64,000 nucleotides of DNA from Chloroflexota bacterium (GTDB lineage: Bacteria; Chloroflexota; Limnocylindria; Limnocylindrales; CSP1-4): NCBI GenBank assembly GCA_029778235.1, contig JAKOQS010000168.1, positions 7,690 through 71,689 on the forward strand, in the 5' to 3' direction. Both the position numbers and the translations under genes were made by a program. Numbering within the stretch: position 1 is the first letter of the stretch; the number at the start of each line of letters is the position of its first letter. This document shows, in pieces, positions 11,730 through 47,543 of the stretch. The notes beneath the pieces are model-generated. The model was not told where the DNA came from, did not search any database, and saw only the letters and a program-made list of their open reading frames with translations.

Positions 11730-12377
11730 ATGGGTGACGCACTCCCGGCCCGCGGTCAGGTCCCACATCGGCCCGCCGACCCCGCCGACCCCACCGATCC
11801 CGGTCGTGCGCGCCTGACCGTGGCCGCGGCCATCGCCGGACTCCGGCCCATCGCCACGCAGTCGCACGACGGGCTGACGCTCGTGCTGCTCGGCGCCGGG
11901 CGCGGCGAGCCGGGCGGCACCCACCGGGCGGCCTCCGGCACCGCGCTCGACGACCCGGTCGCGGCGGTCTTCGCCCTGCCGCCGGGCGTGACCGGGGTCG
12001 CCGTCGGCGTCTTCGACCGCATCGTCTCCCTCCACGCGTTCGACGGGCACGATGCGCTCGCCGCGGCATGGGACGACCTCGTCGCGTGCGCGGTCGAGGC
12101 CTGGCGCGCCGAACGGGACGCCGTGGCCGCGGGGTCGACTCCTCCGCCCGGCCGCCGGTCGCCGGACGACGGCGCGGCCGTGCGCCTCCTGCGGCGCGCG
12201 GCGATCGCACTCGACGGGGCGACGATCGCGCCGCGTCTCGGCGCGACCCCGGGATCCGAGGTGCGGATCGTCGGCGAACGGGTCCAGGGAGTGGCTCGCG
12301 TCGCGGACGGCCGCGCCGTGCAGCTCGCGCTCCTCCCACGCGAGCCGGACGACCCATCGGACGGGCTGGTCCCGTGA
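11730..12377 (+). CDS. Hypothetical protein
   Basis: High GC3 and protein-like composition from about 11820 onward (GTG 11820 is an alternative start). Opposite-strand ORFs here are Arg-rich shadows. A faint, unverified resemblance to DUF6569-type proteins. Confidence 0.5.
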   Translation: MGDALPARGQVPHRPADPADPTDPGRARLTVAAAIAGLRPIATQSHDGLTLVLLGAGRGEPGGTHRAASGTALDDPVAAVFALPPGVTGVAVGVFDRIVSLHAFDGHDALAAAWDDLVACAVEAWRAERDAVAAGSTPPPGRRSPDDGAAVRLLRRAAIALDGATIAPRLGATPGSEVRIVGERVQGVARVADGRAVQLALLPREPDDPSDGLVP

Positions 12378-12574
12378 GGCGACCAGCGACGACGGCGAGG
12401 AGCCAAGCGGCGCGATGTCCACGCCCGGCCCGGCGCCGGGCACATGCGGGGCGGCCGGCAGAGGGGGCACCCGGCCGTCCCGCACCAGCCGCGATGCGCT
12501 CGCGGTCCGACCGCGGCCGGAGGGCGGCGTCGCGGCGATCCGCGGGTGAGCCACGCGCGGTACGCTCCATCTCG

Positions 12575-14365
12575 ATGCGATCCGCCTCTCCGCGGACGCG
12601 TGCACGGGGGGCGTCCGTGGATCCTGACGCGACGGCCGGAGGCGGGCCTGGGGGCGACGCCGCATCGCCGGAGGACCTTGTCTTCGACCGGCTCCGCTCG
12701 GCCCTGCCCGGCGCCGTGCGGATCTACCGCAACGTCCGCTGGATCGCGGCGCCGGAGGACGGGGGGCCCAACGCGGACGGCGAGACGGACCTGCTGGTCG
12801 TCGACCCGGACCGCGGGATCCTCGTCGTCGAGGTGAAGGGCGGGGTCGTGGACGCGGACGCCTACGGCCGCTGGTACGCGGGGCGTAGGGCACTGCAGAT
12901 GTCACCGTTCGCCCAGGCGGAGCGCGGCAAGCATCGCCTCGTGCGTCTGCTCACGGCCGACCCCGACTGGCTCGGTCCGGAGCCAGCCGCCGGCCACGTC
13001 GTGGCCTTCCCGGGCGTGGACTGGACCACCGCCGGCCCGGGCGTCCGTGCACTCGGGGCGGACGCGCCCCGCGCCATCTGCCTGGACGCGGCGGACCTCG
13101 CATCCGATGCGGCGGCTTCGGCGGGGATCGAGCGCGCATGGGCGTTCTGGCTCGGCGCCGGCGGCGGTCGCCCCATCCCGCCCCGGTCGCTCGAGGTGAT
13201 CGCCAGGGCGGTCGCGCGTCCGGTCGCGTTGCGGCCCCTCCTCCGCCGCGCCGTCGAGGCCGGCGAGGGCGAGACCCGCACGATGACGGAGCACCAGGCC
13301 CGGATCCTGGAGGGGCTGTGCGCCGTCAATCGCCGCGCGTCCATCTCGGGCGGCGCCGGGACGGGCAAGACCCAGCTCGCCATGGAGCGTGCCCGCAGGC
13401 TCGCGCGCGACGGCTTCCGGACGCTCCTCGTGTGCTTCAACCAGCCCCTGGCGCGGGCGTTCTCACGCGACCCTGCGCTCGCCGCCCTGATCGACGCCGG
13501 GATGCTCGAGGCCCATACGTTCCACGACCTCGCCCGGCGCCTGGAGGAGGAGGCGGGCATCCTCCCGCCGGTCCCGGGGGCATCCGACGGTCCGGCGGAC
13601 CTCGCGGCATGGTTCGACGCCATCGCGGACCGGTTCCTCGACGCCGTCGAGCGGGTCCCGCTCCGGTTCCACGCCATCGTGGTGGACGAGGGCCAGGACT
13701 TCGCCCGCGCCTGGCTCGAGTCGCTGCCGTTCCTGCTCGACGACCCTGCGGAGGACCCGCTGTACGTCTTCCACGATCCAGGCCAGGGGCTCTACCGGAC
13801 GGACGAGGTCGCGGCGCTGGGACTCACCCCCTACGTCCTGCAGGAGGACTGCCGCAACGCCGGCGACATCCACGACCTCGCCGAGCGGTTCGGCGGCCGC
13901 GCCACGGCCACCGTCGCGCTCCGCGAGCTGCCGGGCGGGGTGGAGGTGGTCTCGGCCGAGCCCGGCGCGCAGACGGTCGATGCCGTCCGGCGCGCGCTGC
14001 ACGCGGTCATCGACGACGGGCGCGTCCCGCCGGGCGACGTGGTCGTGCTCGTGGGGATGGCCCTGCATCGCAGCGACGTGTGGAGGGCCCGCGTGTTCGG
14101 CAACCAGGTCCTCTGGAACGGGAGCGTGGCCGACGACGGACACCAGCTGGGCCTCGCCGCGGACGCCGTCCCGGAGCAGCCGATGGACACCGTCCTGTGC
14201 GAGACGATCCACCGGTTCAAGGGCCTCGACGAGAAGGTCGCCATCCTCGCGGACCTGCGGGCGGACGACCCGCGGCTGGACCAGCTGCTCTACGTCGGCA
14301 TCACCCGCGCGCGTGACCACCTGATCGTGGTCGCACCGCCAGCCGTCGCCCGGAGGCTCGCGTGA
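12575..14365 (+). CDS. NERD-domain nuclease fused to SF1 (UvrD_C/AAA_19-type) helicase
   Basis: N-terminal NERD-type (D/E)xK segment GETDLLVVDPDRGILVVEVKGG. Walker A ISGGAGTGKTQ, Walker B VVDEGQDF, TIHRFKGLDEKV, LLYVGITRARDHLIVV. ATG 12575 lies 8 nt after a TACGCT -10. Confidence 0.85.
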   Translation: MRSASPRTRARGASVDPDATAGGGPGGDAASPEDLVFDRLRSALPGAVRIYRNVRWIAAPEDGGPNADGETDLLVVDPDRGILVVEVKGGVVDADAYGRWYAGRRALQMSPFAQAERGKHRLVRLLTADPDWLGPEPAAGHVVAFPGVDWTTAGPGVRALGADAPRAICLDAADLASDAAASAGIERAWAFWLGAGGGRPIPPRSLEVIARAVARPVALRPLLRRAVEAGEGETRTMTEHQARILEGLCAVNRRASISGGAGTGKTQLAMERARRLARDGFRTLLVCFNQPLARAFSRDPALAALIDAGMLEAHTFHDLARRLEEEAGILPPVPGASDGPADLAAWFDAIADRFLDAVERVPLRFHAIVVDEGQDFARAWLESLPFLLDDPAEDPLYVFHDPGQGLYRTDEVAALGLTPYVLQEDCRNAGDIHDLAERFGGRATATVALRELPGGVEVVSAEPGAQTVDAVRRALHAVIDDGRVPPGDVVVLVGMALHRSDVWRARVFGNQVLWNGSVADDGHQLGLAADAVPEQPMDTVLCETIHRFKGLDEKVAILADLRADDPRLDQLLYVGITRARDHLIVVAPPAVARRLA

Positions 14366-17300
14366 CGGGGATCGCTCCGGGCGTCAGGACGGCACTCGTC
14401 CCGACGGCGGAGCAGCGGGCGATCGTCGAATGGCGCGGCGGGCCCCTCATGGTCCTCGCGGGCGCCGGCACCGGGAAGACCACGGTCATCGTCGAGCGCG
14501 TCCGCCACCTGCTCGCGACGGAGCCCGGCCTGCAGCCCGAGGGCATCCTGGTCCTCACGTACAACGTGAAGGCGACCGAGGAGCTCCTCGGACGGTTCGA
14601 GCGCGCTCTCGGCCTCGAGGTCGCCCGGCGGCTCACAGTCGAGAACTTCCACGGCTTCGGCTTCGGCATCGTGCGGAGGCACTGGCGCGAGCTGGGCCTG
14701 CCGGCCGACCCGATGGTGCTCGACGAGGTGGGCCAGCGTCTCCTGCTGCAGGGTCTGCGCGGGGGGATCCGGTTCCGCCTGTATGACGGGTGGGGCTGGC
14801 ACCAGGCGGAGCTCCGCGAGCTGATCGCCTCGATCGACCGGGCTCGCGACGAGGGCGTGACCTCCGACGACTACCGCGCCGTGGCGCAGGCGGGCCTCGA
14901 AGCGGTGGCAGCGGAGCTCGGGGAGGACCGGTACGCGGCGGCGCTCGCCGCCCTGGACCGGCCGGACGGCCTGGCCGCCGCCAAGGCGACGCATGCCAGG
15001 CAGCAGGCCGACGATCCGGCGTCGATCGTCGCGATCGCCCGACGGATCGTCCGCGGCGACGGCCGGGACGCGGCCGGCGGCATGACCACGGAGCAGCTCC
15101 GCGCGGCCGACGAGCTCGCCGGTCGGCTGGACGACCAGGCGTGCGTGCTCGCGGCGCTCGGGGTGCTGGAGGAGGCCGTCGCGTACGAGGAGTACGCGGC
15201 CGAGCTCGTCCGGACCGGCGCCGTGGACTTCGCCGAGCAGATCCGGCTGGCCGCGCTCCTCCTGCGGGAGCGCCCGGAGGTGCGCTGGGAGCACCTGGAC
15301 CGATACCGGCACGTGCTGGTGGACGAGTTCCAGGACGCGAACGTCGCGCAGATCGACCTGCTCGAGCTCGTCACCCTCGCGCCCGGGCACGTGCCGGACG
15401 TGACCGTCGTCGGCGACGACGACCAGTCGATCTACCGGTTCCGCGGCGCCAGCTACGCGGCGTTCGACGAGTTCGCCGCGCGGTTCGGGCGTCGCCGTGA
15501 CGGCGACCCCGCCAGCCTCGAGCGCGTGGTCGCGAGGCTGCCGTTGCTCGAGAACCGCCGGTCCGTGGCGCCGGTCGTCACGGCCGCGTCGCGGCTCATC
15601 GAGCGGAGCGCCCGGCGCCTCAAGGAGGACCTCCGCCTCGACGCGCTCCGTGGGGCGGGAGCCCCCGTCGAGCTGGTCGTCTCAGACACCGCGGAGCGCG
15701 AGGCCGAGCTGCTCGGCGCGCGCATCGACGCGCTGCGCGCCACGGGCACGGTCGCCGTCCTCGTGCGGAAGCGCCGGCACGCCGACGCGCTCGTTGCGAC
15801 CCTGCGTCGGCGCGGGATCGACGTGGACGTGGAGGCCCGGCCCGACGCGCTCGCCTCGCCGGACGTCGCGGACATCGTGGCGCTCCTCCGTGCGGCGAAC
15901 GACCCGGCCGACGACATCGCCACCGCGCGGGTCCTGCTCGCGGGCCCGTGGGCGCTCGGCAACAAGGGGTTCGCCCGGTTCCTGCGCGAGCGCCCTGCGC
16001 GGGGACGCACGCTGCTCGACGGGGCTCGGCTCTTCGCCGAGGATCGGCCTGCCGACGAGTCGGATCCCGCGCCCGACGCCGCAGCAACCGGCCCGATGCC
16101 GGCCACCCGCCGGGCCGCCGCGTGGCCGGACCCGGAGCTCGACGCGCTCCGCGCCCGGGTCCGCGCGGCCGTGGCCGCGGTCGACGAGGTGGCCGCTCTC
16201 GCGCGCGTCGACACGGGCTACGCGGCCGCGGTGCGCGCCACGGCCCTGCTGCGCTCGGTGGCGGAGGCGCTCGCGGCACCGGCCGCGGGCGAGCCGGCCC
16301 CGGGCGACGACGCAGGGGCGTCGCCGACGCTCGCGGACCTCGGCTCGGTCACGCGGCTGCGGGCCATCGCCCGGTTCCTCACGTACGCGGGCGACGTCGC
16401 GGGAGGGCGACGACCGCTGCCGCTGCACGCCCTCATCCGCCACCTCGACGACCTCGCGCAGGTCGGCGGCACCCTCGAGGTGGAGGATGCCACGCCCCCG
16501 GCGCCCTCGGCGGTCCGCGTGATGACGATCCACCAGGCCAAGGGCCTCGAGTTCGACGCGGTCGTCGTCCCGCGCGTGTGCGCGGGCGAGCTGCCCGACG
16601 AGCGGGCCGAGGCGCTCCCGATCCCCGTCGCCCTGCTCCGCCAGCAGCCCGAGCCGGGGTTCGAGGTGGACGAGGAGCGTCGCCTGCTGTACGTCGCCAT
16701 GACGCGGGCACGGGACCGGCTGATCGTCTCCACGGTGGACGCCCTGTCGCCCGGCCGCGGGGCGCAGCGCCGCAGCGCGTTCGTGGACGACCTGCTCGGC
16801 ATCGACCGCGACGTCTCGGCCGCCGGGACGCTCCCGGCGGACGAGCTGTTCGCCGGGAGCGTGCCCTCGGACGTCACGCTGCGCGACGCGCGCCGCGACC
16901 AGATGCCGGATGCGCTCGATCGCGCCGCCGCCCTCGCGGCCATGGGGCTCACCCACGCGGTCGGGGCCACGGACCCGTCACTCGGCCGTGCGCGCATGGT
17001 CCTCGGGATCCTCGCCCTGCTCGACGACCCGCGCACCGACCCGGCCGCCCGCGAGGCCCTTCGCTCCGACCTGCTGCGGACGCTCGACGGGCCGACGCCG
17101 GGCCGCGTGGACATCGCGCCCCCACCCAGCTACGCCGACCTGCTGCGGGAGAAGCAGAGCCACTCGTCGCTGTCCGAGTACCGCGCGTGCCCCCTGCGGT
17201 ACGCGTTCCGCTACCTCTACCTCCTGCGGCCGCCGCAGCACGCGTACCTCACCTTCGGCTCCAGCGTGCACGAGGTCCTCGAGGCGGACGTCCGGGCCCG

Positions 17301-17952
17301 GATCGCCGCCCGGCGGACGGGGGAGGCGGCCGCCCCCGGCGCGCTGGACGCGCTCGCGGACCGCTTCGCACGGGTCTGGCTCGACTCGTCCACCGGCGAG
17401 GCCACCCCCGTCGAGCGGGACGACTTCCATCGGCGCGCCCGGGTCGCGTTCGAGCAGTATCTCGGGCACGAGGGACGCCGCGACGCGCAGCCGGTCGCCG
17501 TGGAGGCGCGGTTCGACTTCGTCGTCCCGGGCGAGGGCGACGGCCCGCCCATCCGCGTCCACGGCGCGATCGACCGCATCGACCGGCGAGGGGACGGGCG
17601 CATCGAGATCGTGGACTACAAGACGGGGCGCGCGAAGACCCCCGCACAGGTGGACCACGACGACCAGCTCACGCTGTACGCGCTCGCCGTGGCCGACGGC
17701 GCGGTCAGCGACGAGGTGACCGGCGAGACCATCCCTGCACCCGACCTGCTCACGCTCTTCTTCGTCGAGCACGGCCTGTGGGTCACCACCACCCGCACGC
17801 CCGTCCAGCTCGACGCGATGCGCGCGTGGATCGCGGCGACGGTCGCGCGGATGCGCGCCGGCGACTTCGCGGCCACGCCGTCGGACCAGGCGTGCAGTCG
17901 CTGCGACTACGCCGCGCTGTGCCCGGACCGCTACACGGGGCCGGCCACGTGA
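14362..17952 (+). CDS. UvrD/AddA-like SF1 helicase with C-terminal PD-(D/E)XK Cas4/AddB-type Fe-S nuclease
   Basis: All SF1 motifs are intact: AGAGTGKTT, VLVDEFQDAN, VVGDDDQSIYRFRGA, LLENRRS, TIHQAKGLEFD, LLYVAMTRARDRL. Nuclease domain: YRACPLRY...IDRIDRRGDGRIEIVDYKTG...QLTLYALA...CSRCDYAALCP. The GTG start overlaps the upstream stop (GTGA). Confidence 0.9.
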   Translation: MTGIAPGVRTALVPTAEQRAIVEWRGGPLMVLAGAGTGKTTVIVERVRHLLATEPGLQPEGILVLTYNVKATEELLGRFERALGLEVARRLTVENFHGFGFGIVRRHWRELGLPADPMVLDEVGQRLLLQGLRGGIRFRLYDGWGWHQAELRELIASIDRARDEGVTSDDYRAVAQAGLEAVAAELGEDRYAAALAALDRPDGLAAAKATHARQQADDPASIVAIARRIVRGDGRDAAGGMTTEQLRAADELAGRLDDQACVLAALGVLEEAVAYEEYAAELVRTGAVDFAEQIRLAALLLRERPEVRWEHLDRYRHVLVDEFQDANVAQIDLLELVTLAPGHVPDVTVVGDDDQSIYRFRGASYAAFDEFAARFGRRRDGDPASLERVVARLPLLENRRSVAPVVTAASRLIERSARRLKEDLRLDALRGAGAPVELVVSDTAEREAELLGARIDALRATGTVAVLVRKRRHADALVATLRRRGIDVDVEARPDALASPDVADIVALLRAANDPADDIATARVLLAGPWALGNKGFARFLRERPARGRTLLDGARLFAEDRPADESDPAPDAAATGPMPATRRAAAWPDPELDALRARVRAAVAAVDEVAALARVDTGYAAAVRATALLRSVAEALAAPAAGEPAPGDDAGASPTLADLGSVTRLRAIARFLTYAGDVAGGRRPLPLHALIRHLDDLAQVGGTLEVEDATPPAPSAVRVMTIHQAKGLEFDAVVVPRVCAGELPDERAEALPIPVALLRQQPEPGFEVDEERRLLYVAMTRARDRLIVSTVDALSPGRGAQRRSAFVDDLLGIDRDVSAAGTLPADELFAGSVPSDVTLRDARRDQMPDALDRAAALAAMGLTHAVGATDPSLGRARMVLGILALLDDPRTDPAAREALRSDLLRTLDGPTPGRVDIAPPPSYADLLREKQSHSSLSEYRACPLRYAFRYLYLLRPPQHAYLTFGSSVHEVLEADVRARIAARRTGEAAAPGALDALADRFARVWLDSSTGEATPVERDDFHRRARVAFEQYLGHEGRRDAQPVAVEARFDFVVPGEGDGPPIRVHGAIDRIDRRGDGRIEIVDYKTGRAKTPAQVDHDDQLTLYALAVADGAVSDEVTGETIPAPDLLTLFFVEHGLWVTTTRTPVQLDAMRAWIAATVARMRAGDFAATPSDQACSRCDYAALCPDRYTGPAT

Positions 17953-19130
17953 CGGTGCGCTTCATCCACACCGCTGATTGGCAGCTCGGGATGACGCGTC
18001 ATTTCCTCTCGGGTGAGGCGCAGGCCCGGTTCGCCCAGGCCCGGCTCGACGCCATCGCCCGGATCGGCGCTCTCGCGCGCGAGCATCGCGTCGAGTTCGT
18101 CGTGGTGGCAGGCGACGTCTTCGAGACGAACCAGGTGACGCGCCAGACGGTCCTCCGGGCGTGCGACGCGCTCCGGTCGATCGACGTCCCGGTCTTCCTC
18201 CTGCCCGGGAACCACGAGCAGCTCGACGCCACGAGCGTCTTCCGCCAACCCACGTTCGCGCGGTCGGCCCCGCCGAACGTCGTCGTCATCGACTCGACCG
18301 AGCCCCGGCGGATCGACGGCCGGCCCGGGCTGGAGGTCGTGGGCGCCCCGCGGATGACCAAGCGGACCCTCGGCGACCCGCTCGAGCCGGGGTACTCCGC
18401 GCTCGCCCCGGCGCCCGGCGTGACCCGGATCCTGGTCGGCCACGGGATCGTGGACGCGGTCATGCCGGTCGGGGATGCGCCCGACGAGGAGACCCGGATC
18501 CGCCTCTCGCCGGTCCAGGCGGCCATCGCCGACGGCCGCGTGGCATACGTCGCGCTCGGCGACCGCCACTCCACCACCCGCGTGGACGCCGCAGGGCGCG
18601 CCTGGTACGCGGGCGCCCCGGAGCCCACCGCCTACGTCGAGACCGACGCCGGCAACGTGCTGCTCGTGGAGATCGACGAATCGGGGGCGGGGACGCCGGC
18701 CGCTGCCGCCGCGCCCTGTGCCGTGACGCCGCTCCGGGTCGGGACCTGGCGGTTCGTGCTCGGCGACCACCGACTCGACGGCCCAGCGGACCTGGAGGCC
18801 CTGGGGCGCTGGTTCGCGGCGATGCCCGGGAAGGAGCGGACCGTCGTGAAGGTGACGCTCCGCGGCACCCTGGCGCTGCGGGACAAGGCGCGCCTCGACG
18901 CGCTCCTCGCCGAGGAGCGCGAGCGGTTCGCCGCGATCGAGGAGTGGGAGCGCCACGCGGACCTGGTCGTCATCCCCGACGACGCGGACTTCGCCGACCT
19001 GGACCTCGGCGGGTACGCGGCCGACGCGGTGGCGGAGCTCCGACGCGCCGCGGACGGCGGGGTCGCGGATGCAGCCACGGCAGCCGACGCACTGGCGCTT
19101 CTCGTGCGCCTCGCCGGGAGGCCCGCGTGA
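17949..19130 (+). CDS. sbcD: SbcD/Mre11-like metallophosphoesterase (DNA repair exonuclease)
   Basis: Calcineurin-type motifs IHTADWQLG, VVVAGDVFE, LLPGNHE, VGHG. The GTG start overlaps the helicase-nuclease stop (GTGA). Confidence 0.85.
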   Translation: MTVRFIHTADWQLGMTRHFLSGEAQARFAQARLDAIARIGALAREHRVEFVVVAGDVFETNQVTRQTVLRACDALRSIDVPVFLLPGNHEQLDATSVFRQPTFARSAPPNVVVIDSTEPRRIDGRPGLEVVGAPRMTKRTLGDPLEPGYSALAPAPGVTRILVGHGIVDAVMPVGDAPDEETRIRLSPVQAAIADGRVAYVALGDRHSTTRVDAAGRAWYAGAPEPTAYVETDAGNVLLVEIDESGAGTPAAAAAPCAVTPLRVGTWRFVLGDHRLDGPADLEALGRWFAAMPGKERTVVKVTLRGTLALRDKARLDALLAEERERFAAIEEWERHADLVVIPDDADFADLDLGGYAADAVAELRRAADGGVADAATAADALALLVRLAGRPA

Positions 19131-19212
19131 GCGGGGTCCGACCGAGCGGACGCGGCCGGCCGAGCGGACGCCGCGGACGCGGCGGCCGGGGCACCGCCAC
19201 GGGGACTCGGGC

Positions 19213-21885
19213 GTGAGCGGCCCGCTCCGGATCGAGCGGATCCGGGTCACGGACTTCCGCGGCGTCCGCGAGCGCGAGGTCCGCTTCGCCGAAGCCGGGG
19301 TCACCGTCGTGGAGGGGCCCAACGAGACCGGCAAGTCGAGCCTCGCCGATGCGCTCGACATGCTCCTCGACTTCCGCGACGCGTCGCGGCACCGCGACGT
19401 CCTCGCCGCCCAGCCGGTCGGCACCGACGCGGGCCCGATGGTGGAGGCCGACCTTCGTGCCGGGCCCTGGCGCTTCACCTACCGGAAGCGATGGATCCGC
19501 GATCGGGCGACCACGCTCGTGGTGCGCGAGCCGCGCGCGGAGCAGCACGTCGGCGACGCCGCGCACGACCGCGTGCACGCGATCCTCGCCGAGCAGGCGG
19601 ACCTCGGCCTCTGGCGCGCCCTCCGCCTGATGCAGGGCGAGAAGGTGGCTCCCGCGCATGTCGAGGCGGCCGGCTCGCTCGGGGCCGCCCTGGAACGCGC
19701 CGCCGGGGGCTCCGACCCCTCCGACGGCGCCGGGCTGTTCGAGCGCGCCCGGGCGGAGAGCGAGATCTACTGGACGGCGACGGGCCGCGCCCGCGACCCG
19801 CTGACGGCCGGCGAGACCGCGGTCGCCGCCGCCGAGCGCACGGTCGCGGATCTCCGCTCGTCGATCGCGGCCGTTGACGCGGACGCCGATGCGCTCGCCC
19901 GCGCCTCGGCCGAGCTGGCGGGCATGCGCGAGGCGATCGCTGCACAGGAGGCCGCGGTCCACGAGCGCGAGGCACGCGCTGCCGAGGTGGACAGGCTCGC
20001 AGCCGCGGCCCAGGTCCACAAGGCGGCATTCGACGCCGCGACCGCCCGGTCGGCCGAGGTCGCCGCGATCGCCCGCCGTCGCGAGGAGCTGACGACCGCG
20101 CTCGCGGACGCGACGCAGCGCCGCGACGCCCTCTCGGTCGCGGATGCCGCTGCCCGCGACCGCATGGTCGAGCTGGACGCAGCGCTCGGGTCGGCGTCGA
20201 GGGCCCTGGCGGACGCGCGGGGTGCGCGCCTGTCCGCGGCCGCCCTGGTGACGCGGCGCCGAGCCGAGCGCGACCTTCTGCGGGACCGCGGTGATCTGGG
20301 CTCGGCGCTCGAGCAGAAGGCGCGGCTGGACCGCCAGGCCGAGGAGGGTCGGGCCGCGCAGGCCGCTGCGGACGCGAACCCCGTCACGGACGAGGTGCTG
20401 CGCCGCGTCGAGGATGCGGCCCGCCGCCTGGAGCTCGCCCGCGCGCGCCTCGACGCAGGCGCCGGCGAGCTGCGGATCGCCGCGATCGCGCCCGTCACGC
20501 CGGTCGTGGACGGCGCGCCGGTCCATCTCGCGCCGGGTGAGGAGGCAGTCCGGCCCATCGGCGAGGGCATCGCGGTGGAGATCCCCGGCGTCGCCCGCAT
20601 CGTCGCCAGGCCCGGCGGCTCGGTCGCGGCGCTCCGGGCGGAGATCGCCGACGCGGACTCCGCGCTCGCCACCGGCCTCGCCGCCGCCGGCAGCGTGGAC
20701 GTCGCCGAGGCGCGCGCCCGCGCCGCCGACCGGCTCCGCAACGAGGAGGCGGCTCGTCGCGCGCGCGAGGCCGCGACCGCGATCCTCGCCGGCGAGCGTC
20801 CGCTCGCGCTGGAGCAGCGGATCGCGACCCTGCGCGCACGGGTGGAGGAGGCCGAGTCGAGCCTGGGAGGGGACGGCGCCGTGCCGGGCCTCGGCGTGCC
20901 GGGCCTCGCCGCGCAGGCCGACACCGTCCGGGCGGCGGCTGACCTCGAGGCCGCCGAGACGGCCGACCGGGCCGCGGCCGCCGACCTCGCTGTGGCCGAG
21001 GAGGCCGAGCGTGCTGCGCGTGCGGCCGCGGACGCGGAGCGCGCCGCGGGCCAGGAGCGCAGGGTGGAGCTCGGCGTCGCCGCCGCTCGCGCCCGGGAGG
21101 CGGAGGCGGCCCTGGCCGCCGAGCGAGCGACGCTGCCGGACGACCAGCTCGCGCTGCGCTCGGCATCCGCCGAGGCGGAGGTCCGCGACGCCGCCGCCGC
21201 GCGGGCCGCCGCGGACGTCGCGCTCGCCGAGGCCAATCCCGACCAGGCCCGCGCTCTCGCGGAGAACGCGCGCCGGACCCTCGAGACGATCCACGCTCGG
21301 CGACAGCAGCTCGTCGTGGACCAGGCGCGCCTCTCGGGCTCGCTGGCGCGCAGCGGGGAGGATGGGCTCGGCGAGCGCCTCGAGGAGGCCGAGGCCGCCG
21401 CCGAGCGGGCCCGCGACGACCTCGCCCGCCTCCGCCGTCGGGCCGACGCGGCCCGTCTCCTCCACGACACGCTCCGGCGCCACCGCGACGCCGCCCGGCG
21501 GCGCTACGTCCTGCCGCTCACCGAGCGCCTCGAGTCCCTCGGGCGGATCGTCTTCGGCCCGGATGTCGCCGTGGACGTCTCCGACGAGCTCGCGGTCTCC
21601 AGCCTCACCCGCGGAGGTCGGACGATCGCCTGGGATCAGCTGAGCGTCGGGACCCGAGAGCAGCTCGGCGTGCTCGTCCGCGTCGCATGCGCGGAGATCG
21701 TCGCGCCGGATGGCGGCGTCCCCGTGATGCTCGATGACGCGCTCGGGTGGTCGGACCCGGAGCGCCTCGAGGCCATGGGCGCGGTCCTGGCGCGTGCGGG
21801 CGCCTCCACCCAGGTCATCGTCCTCACCTGCTTCCCTGACCGGTACGTCCACGTGGGCGGGGCCACCGTGGTGCGGCTCGGATAG
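19213..21885 (+). CDS. sbcC: SbcC/Rad50-like SMC-type ATPase lacking a CxxC zinc hook
   Basis: Walker A VVEGPNETGKSS, about 650 aa of Ala/Arg/Glu-rich coiled coil, signature LSVGTREQL, Walker B/D-loop VPVMLDDALG. GTG 19213 places Walker A about 35 aa from the N-terminus. Confidence 0.85.
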   Translation: MSGPLRIERIRVTDFRGVREREVRFAEAGVTVVEGPNETGKSSLADALDMLLDFRDASRHRDVLAAQPVGTDAGPMVEADLRAGPWRFTYRKRWIRDRATTLVVREPRAEQHVGDAAHDRVHAILAEQADLGLWRALRLMQGEKVAPAHVEAAGSLGAALERAAGGSDPSDGAGLFERARAESEIYWTATGRARDPLTAGETAVAAAERTVADLRSSIAAVDADADALARASAELAGMREAIAAQEAAVHEREARAAEVDRLAAAAQVHKAAFDAATARSAEVAAIARRREELTTALADATQRRDALSVADAAARDRMVELDAALGSASRALADARGARLSAAALVTRRRAERDLLRDRGDLGSALEQKARLDRQAEEGRAAQAAADANPVTDEVLRRVEDAARRLELARARLDAGAGELRIAAIAPVTPVVDGAPVHLAPGEEAVRPIGEGIAVEIPGVARIVARPGGSVAALRAEIADADSALATGLAAAGSVDVAEARARAADRLRNEEAARRAREAATAILAGERPLALEQRIATLRARVEEAESSLGGDGAVPGLGVPGLAAQADTVRAAADLEAAETADRAAAADLAVAEEAERAARAAADAERAAGQERRVELGVAAARAREAEAALAAERATLPDDQLALRSASAEAEVRDAAAARAAADVALAEANPDQARALAENARRTLETIHARRQQLVVDQARLSGSLARSGEDGLGERLEEAEAAAERARDDLARLRRRADAARLLHDTLRRHRDAARRRYVLPLTERLESLGRIVFGPDVAVDVSDELAVSSLTRGGRTIAWDQLSVGTREQLGVLVRVACAEIVAPDGGVPVMLDDALGWSDPERLEAMGAVLARAGASTQVIVLTCFPDRYVHVGGATVVRLG

Positions 21886-21963: not shown

Positions 21964-22218
21964 GTGAGCAGCGTGGACGAGCGGGGCCGGATCACCATCG
22001 AGAAGGCCATCCGCGAGGAGCTCGGCATCCACGCCGGGGACGAGACCGTCCAGCGCGTGGAGAACGGCAGCATCGTGATCGACGTCGTGCCCGGACGGCA
22101 CCGCCGATCATCGTTCGCCTCGCTGGCGACCCCGGGTCAGCCGCCGGCCGACGCGTCGGGGGTCGCGGTGCCCGAGCCCCGGCGGAGGACGAGGGACCCC
22201 GGCCCGCGGCAGGGCTGA
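21964..22218 (+). CDS. AbrB/MazE/SpoVT-family DNA-binding protein (antitoxin-like, no cognate toxin adjacent)
   Basis: N-terminal swapped-hairpin signature VDERGRITIEKAIREELGIHAGDE and a disordered C-terminal tail. A TTGACC-17-CATGCT promoter-like element lies upstream. Confidence 0.6.
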   Translation: MSSVDERGRITIEKAIREELGIHAGDETVQRVENGSIVIDVVPGRHRRSSFASLATPGQPPADASGVAVPEPRRRTRDPGPRQG

Positions 22219-22233: not shown

Positions 22234-22665
22234 TCAGTCGGGCGCGCGAGCCCCGTCGACGACCGCGGGGATGTCGAGGCCCAGGTGGTGCGCCAGCGCG
22301 CGGCGCACGGCGGCGCGGGTCGCCGCGGACGTCACGAACCCGTCGGGAGCCCGGCCGGCCAGCCGGTCCAGCGGGATCGTCCGGACCTGGTGGCAGAGGA
22401 TCACCCCCGGCCGCACCTGGCCGGCTTCACCCACGGGCAGCACCACCTCACCCGGGTAGCGCGGCTCGTCGCGGACGGCCGTGATCGGCAGGACGGTGGC
22501 CATCCGCGCCCGGTGCACGGCCTCCATCGAGACCACCAGGGCACGCCGATCCCCCGCGTGCTGCCGCCGGACCCCAGGCTCCGGCGCGATCCGGACGACG
22601 CCCCATCTCAGCCGATCCGGCGTGGTGGGCGGCACGGCCGAGGCGCGGGTCACCATGAGCGCCAT
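22234..22665 (-). CDS. mazF: PemK/MazF-family type II toxin (endoribonuclease)
   Basis: RWGVVRIAPEPG...DRRALVVS...ATVLPITAV...PGVILCHQVRTIPLDRL matches the MazF/PemK layout. Its start overlaps the stop of the upstream RHH gene. Confidence 0.7.
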   Translation of the reverse strand: MALMVTRASAVPPTTPDRLRWGVVRIAPEPGVRRQHAGDRRALVVSMEAVHRARMATVLPITAVRDEPRYPGEVVLPVGEAGQVRPGVILCHQVRTIPLDRLAGRAPDGFVTSAATRAAVRRALAHHLGLDIPAVVDGARAPD

Positions 22666-22910
22666 GAGTCGCGCTCGGCCGGCGTGACCTCGCGCTCGAT
22701 CGACCGGCTCTCGGCCGCGAACTCGGCGTCGGTGGCGGCCCCAGCCCAGATGCGAGCCTCGTCCGCCTCGACGAGGTGGCGCGCGAGCTCGTCCACCGCC
22801 AGCTCCACGATCCCATCCTGCGTCTCCGCGAGACCGTGGACCGCCGCGAGGTCACGCACGAGCCGGACCGTCCGCTCGGGGAGGTTGTACGTCCGCTTCA
22901 CGCGTGTCAC
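22650..22910 (-). CDS. Ribbon-helix-helix (CopG-like) antitoxin
   Basis: N-terminal KRTYNLPERTVRLVRDLA (RHH beta-strand plus helix), about 86 aa, immediately upstream of mazF. GTG starts are possible at 22913, 22910 and 22901. Confidence 0.65.
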   Translation of the reverse strand: MTRVKRTYNLPERTVRLVRDLAAVHGLAETQDGIVELAVDELARHLVEADEARIWAGAATDAEFAAESRSIEREVTPAERDSWRSW

Positions 22911-42024: not shown

Positions 42025-46668
<4,644 letters not shown>

Positions 46669-46691: not shown

Positions 46692-47543
46692 ATGCCCGAG
46701 GGCGACACGCTCTTCCGCACGGCAGCGGGGCTGCGGCCGTACCTGGTCGGCCGACAGGTCGTCGCCGCGCACGCGCGCCAGCCGGGACCCCGGGCGGACC
46801 TCCTGGTCGGGCGGTCGGTCACCGAGGTCCTCGCGATCGGGAAGAACCTCGTCATCCGGTTCGATTCGGGCGTGGAGCTGCGGACGCACCTCGGGATGCG
46901 GGGCTCGTGGCACCGGTACCGGCCCGGCGAGCGGTGGCGCCGCCCGCCCGCCCGCGCCCGCATCGCGCTGGAGGTCCCCGGCGCCGTCGCCGTCTGCTTC
47001 GACGCGCCGACCGCCGAGATCCTCGAGACGCGCGCGGAGGTCGTGCACCCCCCGCTCGGGCGGCTCGGGCCGGATCTGCTTTCGCCGGCGTTCGACGCGG
47101 AGGAGGCCGTGCGTCGGCTCCGCGCCCCGGAGCGGGCCGGCCTGTCGATCGCCTCCGCGCTCCTTGACCAGCGGGCCCTCGCGGGGATCGGCAACGTCTA
47201 CTGCGACGAGACGCTGTTCCTGGAGCGGGTGGACCCCTTCGCGCCGGTGGGCGACCTGCCGGGGACGACGATCGAGCGGCTCGTCGGAAGAGCCCGCGAC
47301 CTTCTGCGGGCGAACCGCGAGAGCGCGATCCGCACCACGACGCCAGGGCCGATGGCAGCCCGGGGCCACCGCCTCTGGGTCTACGGACGCGCGGGCCGAC
47401 CCTGCCGGCGGTGCGGCACGACCCTGCTCGCGCGGCGCCACGGCGACCTTCCGCGACGGCGCACCTGGTGCCCGCGATGCCAGGCGCCGGGGTCGGGGAC
47501 GGAGGCCCGCGTCGAGTCGCGCGACGCGGCCGGCTCGAGCTGA
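46692..47543 (+). CDS. nei: Fpg/Nei-family DNA glycosylase (endonuclease VIII-like)
   Basis: N-terminal MPEGDT(L) catalytic Pro-Glu, H2TH GIGNVYCDETLF, and a C-terminal zinc finger CRRCGTTL...WCPRCQ. Confidence 0.88.
   Translation: MPEGDTLFRTAAGLRPYLVGRQVVAAHARQPGPRADLLVGRSVTEVLAIGKNLVIRFDSGVELRTHLGMRGSWHRYRPGERWRRPPARARIALEVPGAVAVCFDAPTAEILETRAEVVHPPLGRLGPDLLSPAFDAEEAVRRLRAPERAGLSIASALLDQRALAGIGNVYCDETLFLERVDPFAPVGDLPGTTIERLVGRARDLLRANRESAIRTTTPGPMAARGHRLWVYGRAGRPCRRCGTTLLARRHGDLPRRRTWCPRCQAPGSGTEARVESRDAAGSS

Follow-up and report, generated by a model that had tools for sequence, protein, structure and literature searches.

A possible operon for DNA-end processing in Limnocylindria-like Chloroflexota, with a single-chain AddA-class helicase-nuclease and a hook-less SbcEF-like pair

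Introduction

To our knowledge, all characterised enzymes of the AddA/RecB class are heteromers that include a large partner (AddB, AdnA/AdnB or RecC). Mycobacterial AdnAB is a heterodimer of two paralogous subunits of the 1,000-amino-acid (aa) class, whose genes lie side by side. We know of no experimental study of end resection in Chloroflexota. Here we analysed a block of four genes, named g1 to g4 in their order, on the plus strand of a 64,000-nucleotide (nt) stretch from a Chloroflexota bacterium (contig JAKOQS010000168.1 of assembly GCA_029778235.1, positions 7,690 to 71,689). This whole stretch is called the window, and coordinates are those of the window unless another locus is named. 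The gene order recalls Bacillus subtilis, where addB, addA, sbcD and sbcC form a putative operon (PMC1533848); this parallel, first drawn in a preliminary description made from the sequence alone, is thus documented. A second related system is the SbcE-SbcF (YhaN-YhaO) pair of B. subtilis and other Gram-positive bacteria, in which SbcE/YhaN lacks a CxxC motif, is paired with the SbcD-like YhaO (SbcF) and has a role in double-strand-break repair (PMC2811018).

We propose that the block is a chromosomal operon for DNA-end processing in double-strand-break repair, with g1 as a dispensable accessory, a reading that we hold to be about evenly balanced between right and wrong. The further proposal that this operon was assembled in one Limnocylindria-like clade (loci with a g3 identity of at least 78%) from three units inherited separately elsewhere seems to us an equally even call. 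None of the four genes is of a new family, and their annotation in public records is generic (NERD domain protein, ATP-dependent DNA helicase, SbcD-like metallophosphoesterase). In the literature, we found no description of this four-gene arrangement. Three aspects are new: the facultative pairing of a NERD-helicase with an AddA-class protein in Limnocylindria-like genomes, the union in one chain of an apparently active motor and a predicted iron-sulphur (Fe-S) nuclease without a large partner, and, within one clade, the coupling of this single-chain g2 to an SbcEF-like pair that lacks the hook.

Gene organisation of the block

A gene call based on G+C content at third codon positions (GC3) recovered four consecutive plus-strand genes as coding frames, with GC3 values of 0.93-0.95. 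The open reading frames (ORFs) are real, and Pfam confirmed every domain that had been predicted for them. Two intact superfamily 1 (SF1) motors, in g1 and g2, and three nuclease domains, in g1, g2 and g3, were likewise borne out by Pfam matches and motifs. The GTGA overlaps announced for the first two junctions were found exactly as claimed, at 14362-14365 for g1/g2 and at 17949-17952 for g2/g3, and a 4-nt g1/g2 overlap is also present in the related loci L086 and L001. The G+C content stays at about 75% along the whole window with no compositional break at the block, which occupies a fixed chromosomal position between hydrogenase and VanW genes.

The third junction has no overlap in the window, as g3 stops at 19130 and the likely start of g4 is a GTG at 19213. 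The spacer (19131-19212, plus strand) stems from an 86-nt duplication/insertion that replaces the 4-nt overlap of the relatives. This insert was seen in the window alone, the g3/g4 junctions of L001, L081, L084, L085 and L086 all being 4-nt overlaps, and it is bounded by the 10-nt direct repeat GCGTGAGCGG, with copies at 19125-19134 and 19211-19220. It splits the ancestral GTGA overlap, leaving the g3 stop in one copy of the repeat and the g4 start in the other. The g4 frame is open back to an ATG at 19069, and the resulting extension has no counterpart in relatives; when g4 is aligned with its orthologues in L001 and L081, the GTG at 19213 comes out as the likely start.

The g2 helicase-nuclease

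According to Pfam, g2 (14362-17952, plus strand) encodes in a single chain a UvrD-type SF1 motor (UvrD-helicase, 170 bits; UvrD_C, 123 bits) and a C-terminal four-cysteine PD-(D/E)XK nuclease (PDDEXK_1, 152 bits). The helicase motifs GAGTGKT, DEFQDAN, GDDDQSIYRFRGA and MTRA, the nuclease residues D1071, D1085 and K1087, and the four-cysteine signature C943...C1178-x2-C1181-x5-C1187, predicted to bind an Fe-S cluster, were all invariant in 30 homologues. When PDB was searched by sequence, the motor matched UvrD/Rep/PcrA and AdnB (E ~1e-32 for AdnB), while the sole match of the nuclease domain was the AdnA nuclease, with the CxxCx5C motif aligned. An AlphaFold2 model with a predicted local distance difference test score (pLDDT) of 78 had AddA as its best Foldseek match (E 3.8e-37), followed by UvrD/Rep, AdnA, RecB, AdnB and AddB. 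The scores of g2 were far below the NCBIfam equivalog cut-offs (129.8 vs 707.65 for addA_Gpos and 102.2 vs 696 for recB). Because its model matches AddA, its motor resembles UvrD/AdnB and its nuclease resembles AdnA, we assign g2 to the AddA/RecB class of helicase-nucleases, with a predicted Fe-S nuclease of the AdnA/AddB type behind an apparently active motor. PADLOC matched g2 with its GajB and RTasHel models; the GajB matches reflect generic UvrD homology.

Like AdnAB, g2 combines a UvrD-type motor with a C-terminal PD-(D/E)XK nuclease, but it joins the AdnB-like active motor and the AdnA-like nuclease in one gene instead of distributing them over two large subunits. It also has the architecture of RecB, which its model matches, whereas the block has no RecC-like gene. 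At none of the loci examined was a gene for a second large helicase-like or nuclease subunit (~1,000-1,200 aa) adjacent to g2, whose neighbour at these loci was either the 582-aa g1 or nothing.

The g3-g4 pair

Gene g3 (17949-19130, plus strand) encodes an SbcD/Mre11-like metallophosphoesterase (Pfam Metallophos, 37.5 bits), with PDB matches to SbcD and Mre11 and an NCBIfam sbcd score below the cut-off (43.5 vs 77.65). Alignment with Escherichia coli SbcD placed a glutamine at H10 and an aspartate at H222, two of the metal ligands. Both substitutions recur in the 120 homologues P0121-P0240: motif I, H(T/S)ADWQLG, with the glutamine at H10, was present in 99 of them, and motif V, GDRHS, with the aspartate at H222, in 118.

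Gene g4 (19213-21885, plus strand) encodes an SMC/Rad50-like ATPase with a long alanine-rich coiled coil. Its Pfam matches were AAA_23 (29.3 bits vs a cut-off of 27) and a marginal AAA_27 (24.7 vs 22); AAA_27 was listed without a weak mark in the g4 relatives of L084 and L085. The preliminary description had called it a hook-less SMC-like ATPase. This was upheld, since the ATPase motifs are present (Walker A GPNETGKS, signature LSVGTREQL, Walker B VMLDDALG) and no CxxC zinc hook was found in g4 or in four relatives, that is in any of the five family members. The PADLOC matches of g4 to GajA, LmuB and PtuA cover only about 50 P-loop residues.

The pair shares with SbcCD/Mre11-Rad50 the phosphoesterase motifs GD, GNH(D/E) and GH in g3, the separation of Walker A from the signature and Walker B by a long coiled coil in g4, and the adjoining position of the two genes, which are translationally coupled in relatives. 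It differs by the missing zinc hook, by the glutamine and aspartate at the SbcD positions H10 and H222, and by scores far under the cut-offs of the SbcD and Rad50 equivalogs of NCBIfam. In SbcE-SbcF, too, an SbcD-like gene is followed by that of a hook-less SMC-like ATPase of about 900 aa, and g4 and its relatives match AAA_27, the YhaN-type N-terminal domain; the g3 family nevertheless has conserved DWQ and GDRH metal-site variants of its own. On the grounds of gene order, missing CxxC and AAA_27, we take g4 to be closest in kind to SbcE/YhaN. The absence of a hook is not new in itself, as SbcE/YhaN provides a precedent (PMC2811018).

Members of the g3-g4 family occur widely across Chloroflexota and Actinobacteria. 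Among the candidates scored, 4,823 were g3 homologues, and the g3 proteins of Chloroflexota and of the actinobacterium Actinomarinicola tropica share about 55% identity. Outside the clade, g3 and g4 form a stand-alone pair with a 4-nt overlap, situated among metabolic genes with no helicases nearby, as seen in A. tropica and in a Limnocylindrales chromosome whose g1 homologue is about 36 kb off. The pair may be orthologous to Rv1277/Rv1278, for which our literature search returned only gene-list mentions.

The g1 helicase

Gene g1 (12617-14365, plus strand; alternative start at ATG 12575) encodes a NERD nuclease joined to a compact SF1 helicase. The Pfam families matched above the gathering cut-off were NERD (PF08378; residues 33-145, 39.8 bits vs a cut-off of 22.1), UvrD_C_2, AAA_19 and AAA_16. 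Invariant in 20 homologues were the nuclease residues D72, E86 and K88 of the NERD domain and, in the helicase, Walker A (GxAGTGK), DEGQD and R578. No match was obtained with g1 at E <= 0.01 in a sequence search of PDB. Its AlphaFold2 model (mean pLDDT 80.9) matched in Foldseek the helicase cores of SLFN11, UvrD, Upf1 and RecD2, which do not separate SF1A from SF1B. The best of the PDB matches of the model was human Schlafen 11 (7zel_A, E 5.9e-16, template-modelling score ~0.42), above UvrD, and the Pfam domain SLFN-g3_helicase also occurs in some g1 homologues (P0084, P0107). In a set of 185,579 species genomes, the relatives of g1 were found nearly all in metagenome-assembled genomes of Chloroflexota, labelled Chloroflexia or Candidatus Limnocylindrales, a group to which the window very likely belongs.

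We compared g1 with three described proteins. It is of the size of RecD, and its helicase matches AAA_19, AAA_30 and UvrD_C_2 and, weakly, the NCBIfam RecD2 model, but RecD has no NERD nuclease. With Nhi, the architecture to which g1 had initially been ascribed, it shares the arrangement in one polypeptide of an N-terminal PD-(D/E)XK-type nuclease and a C-terminal SF1 helicase. Membership of the Nhi family was rejected, as the match of the PADLOC Nhi model to g1 is limited to about 50 residues around the P-loop (237-286, E 8.9e-5). Homologues of the staphylococcal Nhi have been reported only in Firmicutes, Bacteroidetes and Proteobacteria, and are often plasmid-borne (bioRxiv 10.1101/776245), whereas members of the g1 family lie on Chloroflexota chromosomes, about one third of them in linkage with g2. 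Of the PADLOC models, RTasNERD-Hel matched g1 best, near full length (E 1.7e-47); this NERD-helicase accompanies some UG34 reverse transcriptases and was reported for only 7 of 17 UG34 members (PMC9226505). There was no reverse-transcriptase domain among the window genes scanned near g1.

Conservation of the gene order

The order g1-g2-g3(-g4) was found in the window, L001, L086, L087/L088 and L169, with the same hydrogenase/DUF2252 synteny. The L081 locus and the P0133 contigs have the order DUF2252-g2-g3-g4, without g1. Thus g2, g3 and g4 are contiguous in all clade members examined, in most of them with GTGA-type overlaps. Frameshifts in g4 (L087/L088) and in g1 (L169) may be assembly errors, probably of long-read contigs, and were not used as evidence of pseudogenes.

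Comparison of L081 (5817-6076) with the window (12436-12692) revealed a deletion scar, with 72% identity over 266 nt. L081 keeps the promoter hexamer described below, the G-run, the GTG and about 25 first codons of g1 directly before g2. Because the promoter region and the first codons remain there, we conclude from the alignment that g1 was deleted in L081. The opposite event, an insertion of g1 into the lineage of the window, was considered and rejected, as L081 holds a remnant of the 5' end of g1. Since the promoter region of g1 is retained in front of g2 in L081, one conserved promoter region appears to serve the block.

We then counted the neighbours of g1 at 57 loci whose downstream flank was 5 kb or longer. 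A g2 homologue lay within 6 kb downstream, on the same strand, at 19 of these loci, and upstream at four others; g3-g4 followed only in L001. The gap between g1 and g2 ranged from 0 to 5.4 kb and held small genes (YccF-like, an unknown one of 180 aa, a BrnT toxin-antitoxin pair). No g2 was found within 6 kb downstream at the remaining 38 loci, and distant relatives of g1 in other phyla had no g2 alongside. In a metagenome scan centred on g2, g1 adjoined in L103, L106 and L108, and in reversed order in L105, and was absent from L095, L096, L113 and L170. Among the g2 homologue loci examined outside the clade, g3-g4 was never found beside g2.

The block is therefore composed of three units, g1, g2 and g3-g4, because these separate outside the clade. 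The bond between g3 and g4 holds in every locus examined, the g1-g2 link is recurrent but facultative, and the link of g2 to g3-g4 is specific to the clade. The preliminary description had presented a four-gene module. All four genes do lie together in a narrow clade, but the lack of g1 in L081 and the P0133 contigs and the separation of the units elsewhere mean that the four genes are not a conserved module and that g1 is kept beside g2-g4 only in part.

This pattern bears on the possibility that only g2-g3-g4 or g3-g4 is a repair unit, g1 being an independent nuclease-helicase, analogous to Nhi, that shares the promoter without any physical partnership with g2. The deletion in L081 left g2-g4 intact, two thirds of the g1 loci counted and all those in distant phyla lack a nearby g2, g2 homologues without g1 exist in four loci of the metagenome scan, and the small genes (YccF-like, BrnT, unknown) that often part linked g1 and g2 are in some cases on the opposite strand. 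Against an independent g1, a linkage at 19 of 57 loci is far over chance for genes present one to three times per genome, the linkage comes back among different flanking genes and, in L105, with the order reversed, and the 4-nt g1/g2 overlap is present in the window, L086 and L001. We consider an independent g1 unlikely.

Two further observations were made on the loci carrying g1 or g2. In L040 (9980-20526) and L047, both of Limnocylindrales, g1 is followed by a gene for a 1187-aa protein with RNase_H_2 and AAA_11/AAA_12 helicase domains, a polysaccharide deacetylase gene, Ku and a full-length LigD; g1 thus lies in a non-homologous end joining neighbourhood in these two loci. A plain UvrD gene is situated a few genes downstream of g2 in L015, L038 and L058.

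Start of the putative operon

The preliminary description had proposed a leaderless start at ATG 12575, 8 nt downstream of the hexamer TACGCT (12561-12566, plus strand), a candidate -10 element of the form TANNNT. The hexamer is kept in aligned relatives, as TACGCT in the window, L086 and L001, TAGGCT in L087 and TACCCT in L081, where, g1 being deleted, it sits upstream of g2. The start itself was rejected, since its frame is not conserved in relatives: the counterpart of ATG 12575 does not lie in the g1 frame in L001 and is missing from L087. A Shine-Dalgarno-like G-run, GGGGGG (12606-12611, plus strand), lies 5 nt before GTG 12617, and a G-run followed by an in-frame GTG or ATG was present in all four relatives carrying g1. 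Because the relatives share this feature and not ATG 12575, a leader of about 45 nt is probable for the mRNA, and a length of 582 aa from GTG 12617, rather than 596 aa from ATG 12575, is probable for g1. A scan for sigma-70 consensus promoters found no site at the hexamer or around either end of the block, and a scan for intrinsic terminators found none around both ends, which is expected at 75% G+C. As the sigma-70 scan was blank at the hexamer, its promoter role is one that we infer, and TACGCT is a reasonable candidate for a -10 element.

Alleles of g2

Two types of g2 allele occupy the same locus, one in the window, L086 and L169 and the other in L087, L001 and L081. Alleles of the first type are 77-80% identical among themselves and about 41-46% identical to the second type, while g3 stays 78-89% identical across the carriers of both. 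The window type was represented by only three sequences among 5.8 billion proteins, the next best match being 43-46% identical. The identity of g4 to that of the window does not follow the g2 types (L087 ~77%, L001 ~57%), which suggests mosaic recombination at the locus.

Function of the block

For g2-g4, the evidence from context points rather to repair; for g1, it is mixed. A role in repair is favoured by the housekeeping character of g3-g4, the AddA class of g2, the fixed position of the block, the Bacillus precedent, and the Ku/LigD and UvrD neighbours. As in the B. subtilis operon, genes for an end-resecting helicase-nuclease lie directly upstream of, and co-oriented with, SbcD-like and SMC-like genes. 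The present block differs in that it has no AddB-like partner, its upstream gene being an optional 582-aa NERD-SF1 helicase, and in that the predicted Fe-S nuclease is carried by the subunit with the active motor. Furthermore, B. subtilis SbcC has a CxxC hook, which g4 lacks, and the arrangement seen in the window is confined to one Chloroflexota clade.

A mechanism may be outlined, all steps of which are taken from knowledge of the families. The g3-g4 product, a hook-less ATPase-nuclease of the Mre11/Rad50 type, would recognise and open blocked or hairpin-capped ends. The g2 protein would load there next and, moving 3'->5', would cleave the 5' strand that it displaces, so that RecA receives a 3' tail. 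The g1 protein would be a dispensable helper that adds a further motor and nuclease, perhaps as a partner of g2.

Several points weigh against a repair operon. The block encodes no large partner of the AddB, AdnA/AdnB or RecC type for g2, although the characterised enzymes of its class all work as heteromers. Two canonical Mre11 histidines are missing from g3. The first gene, g1, is facultative, being deleted in L081 and absent from the P0133 contigs, and is unlinked from g2 in about two thirds of the loci in both directions. The split g2 alleles and the rarity of the window type form a pattern commoner in conflict genes. Neighbours of defence type are frequent (MazEF, BrnT, restriction, Fic, and SLFN-type and PLD-ResIII helicases).

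A more specific and more speculative proposal is that g1 and g2 form a new two-motor helicase-nuclease, in which a subunit of the AddA/RecB fold with an AdnA-type Fe-S nuclease would pair with a RecD-sized NERD-SF1 subunit and would do without an AddB/RecC-like scaffold. In one clade, this enzyme would be translationally coupled to the hook-less SbcEF-type complex to give a resection machine encoded by one operon. Diversifying selection, for instance through inhibitors encoded by phages, like those of RecBCD, would in that case account for the split g2 alleles. We regard this version as improbable. Should g2 prove to function by itself or together with g1, it would represent the AddAB/AdnAB/RecBCD class in a minimal form, with an Fe-S nuclease on the active-motor subunit and no large scaffold, and would inform us on the evolution and the minimal needs of resection machines. 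The g3-g4 family matters for its conserved non-canonical metal ligands and its lack of a zinc hook. As the families are known, the clade narrow and a comparable Bacillus operon described, these results refine present knowledge and bring no surprise.

Neighbouring genes and other explanations

The toxin-antitoxin patch announced downstream of the block was recovered. It begins directly after g4 with a MazE/AbrB-type antitoxin-like gene (21964-22218, plus strand; Pfam MazE_antitoxin, 24.9 bits), kept in L087, L088 and L169 and not called at this place in L081. It continues with a PemK/MazF toxin gene (22234-22665, minus strand; Pfam PemK_toxin, 46.3 bits) and an 83-aa ORF (22650-22901, minus strand) that overlaps the PemK gene upstream, has no Pfam match and is presumed to be its antitoxin. 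The pair of PemK and the 83-aa ORF is also present in L087, L088 and L169. It is followed by BglII/Vsr/Dcm restriction-modification genes in L087 (11082-14782) and by a helicase of the SLFN-group-3 type in L088 and L169. The spot after g4 is thus a small variable islet, with shared MazE-like and PemK genes and then differing genes. At other loci, BrnT, AspBHI/Mrr and a PLD-ResIII helicase were found around g1..g2. Genes with Fic/DOC domains lie on both sides of the g1 homologue in L031 (8774-12964) and L003 (8556-16715), and in L003 g1 is parted from the second of these Fic genes by an HsdR gene of type I restriction. Most genes that flank the g1..g2 loci are metabolic.

An alternative is that the block, or at least g1-g2, is an anti-phage or anti-plasmid defence, in which the NERD-helicase and the helicase-nuclease would sense and degrade linear DNA that is foreign or replicating, much as in Nhi, Hachiman, Gabija or RecBCD, with the SbcCD-like pair aiding end recognition. 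In addition to MazEF directly downstream, the variable restriction-modification or SLFN-helicase genes of the sister contigs, and the BrnT, AspBHI/Mrr, PLD-ResIII, Fic and HsdR genes of other loci, this explanation draws on the PADLOC matches of g1 to RTasNERD-Hel and of g2 to GajB and RTasHel, on the variable presence of g1 among close relatives and on the two very divergent g2 alleles at one locus. However, no PADLOC system was matched past generic domain homology (the Nhi, AbiO, GajA and LmuB matches cover about 50 P-loop residues), and the window genes scanned near g1 did not include the reverse-transcriptase domain that accompanies RTasNERD-Hel. Moreover, g3-g4 is strongly conserved in core metabolic contexts without helicases, the block keeps its position between the hydrogenase and VanW genes with a base composition like that of its surroundings, the g1..g2 flanks are mostly metabolic, and Ku and LigD are also found beside g1. 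We therefore hold a defence function to be doubtful and retain the repair operon as the preferred explanation. That unrelated DNA-metabolism genes came to lie side by side neutrally in this lineage, without working together, and that the order could be conserved by inertia, given that it is confined to one narrow clade with shared ancestry and flanking synteny, is very improbable in our view, since the start/stop overlaps at two junctions persist in several members despite 41-80% protein divergence, the promoter region was kept after the deletion of g1, and Bacillus independently evolved a comparable arrangement of helicase-nuclease and sbcDC genes.

Other genes of the window

Upstream of g1, a small ORF of 185 aa (11820-12377, plus strand) has a marginal Pfam match to ARPP-1 (28.3 bits vs a cut-off of 27). 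Its orthologues are situated upstream of g1 in L001, L086 and L169, and it is absent from L081, from the P0133 contigs and from L087, which has g1; it is a variable neighbour and probably lies outside the operon.

A second pair of DNA-repair genes was noticed farther downstream. It consists of a gene for a 1541-aa Lhr-type helicase (42043-46668, plus strand), with DEAD, WH_Lhr, DEAD_assoc and WH2-4_Lhr domains, and, 24 nt after it, a gene for a DNA glycosylase of the Fpg/Nei type (46692-47543, plus strand). In mycobacteria, the known partner of Lhr is not a glycosylase but the phosphoesterase MPE.

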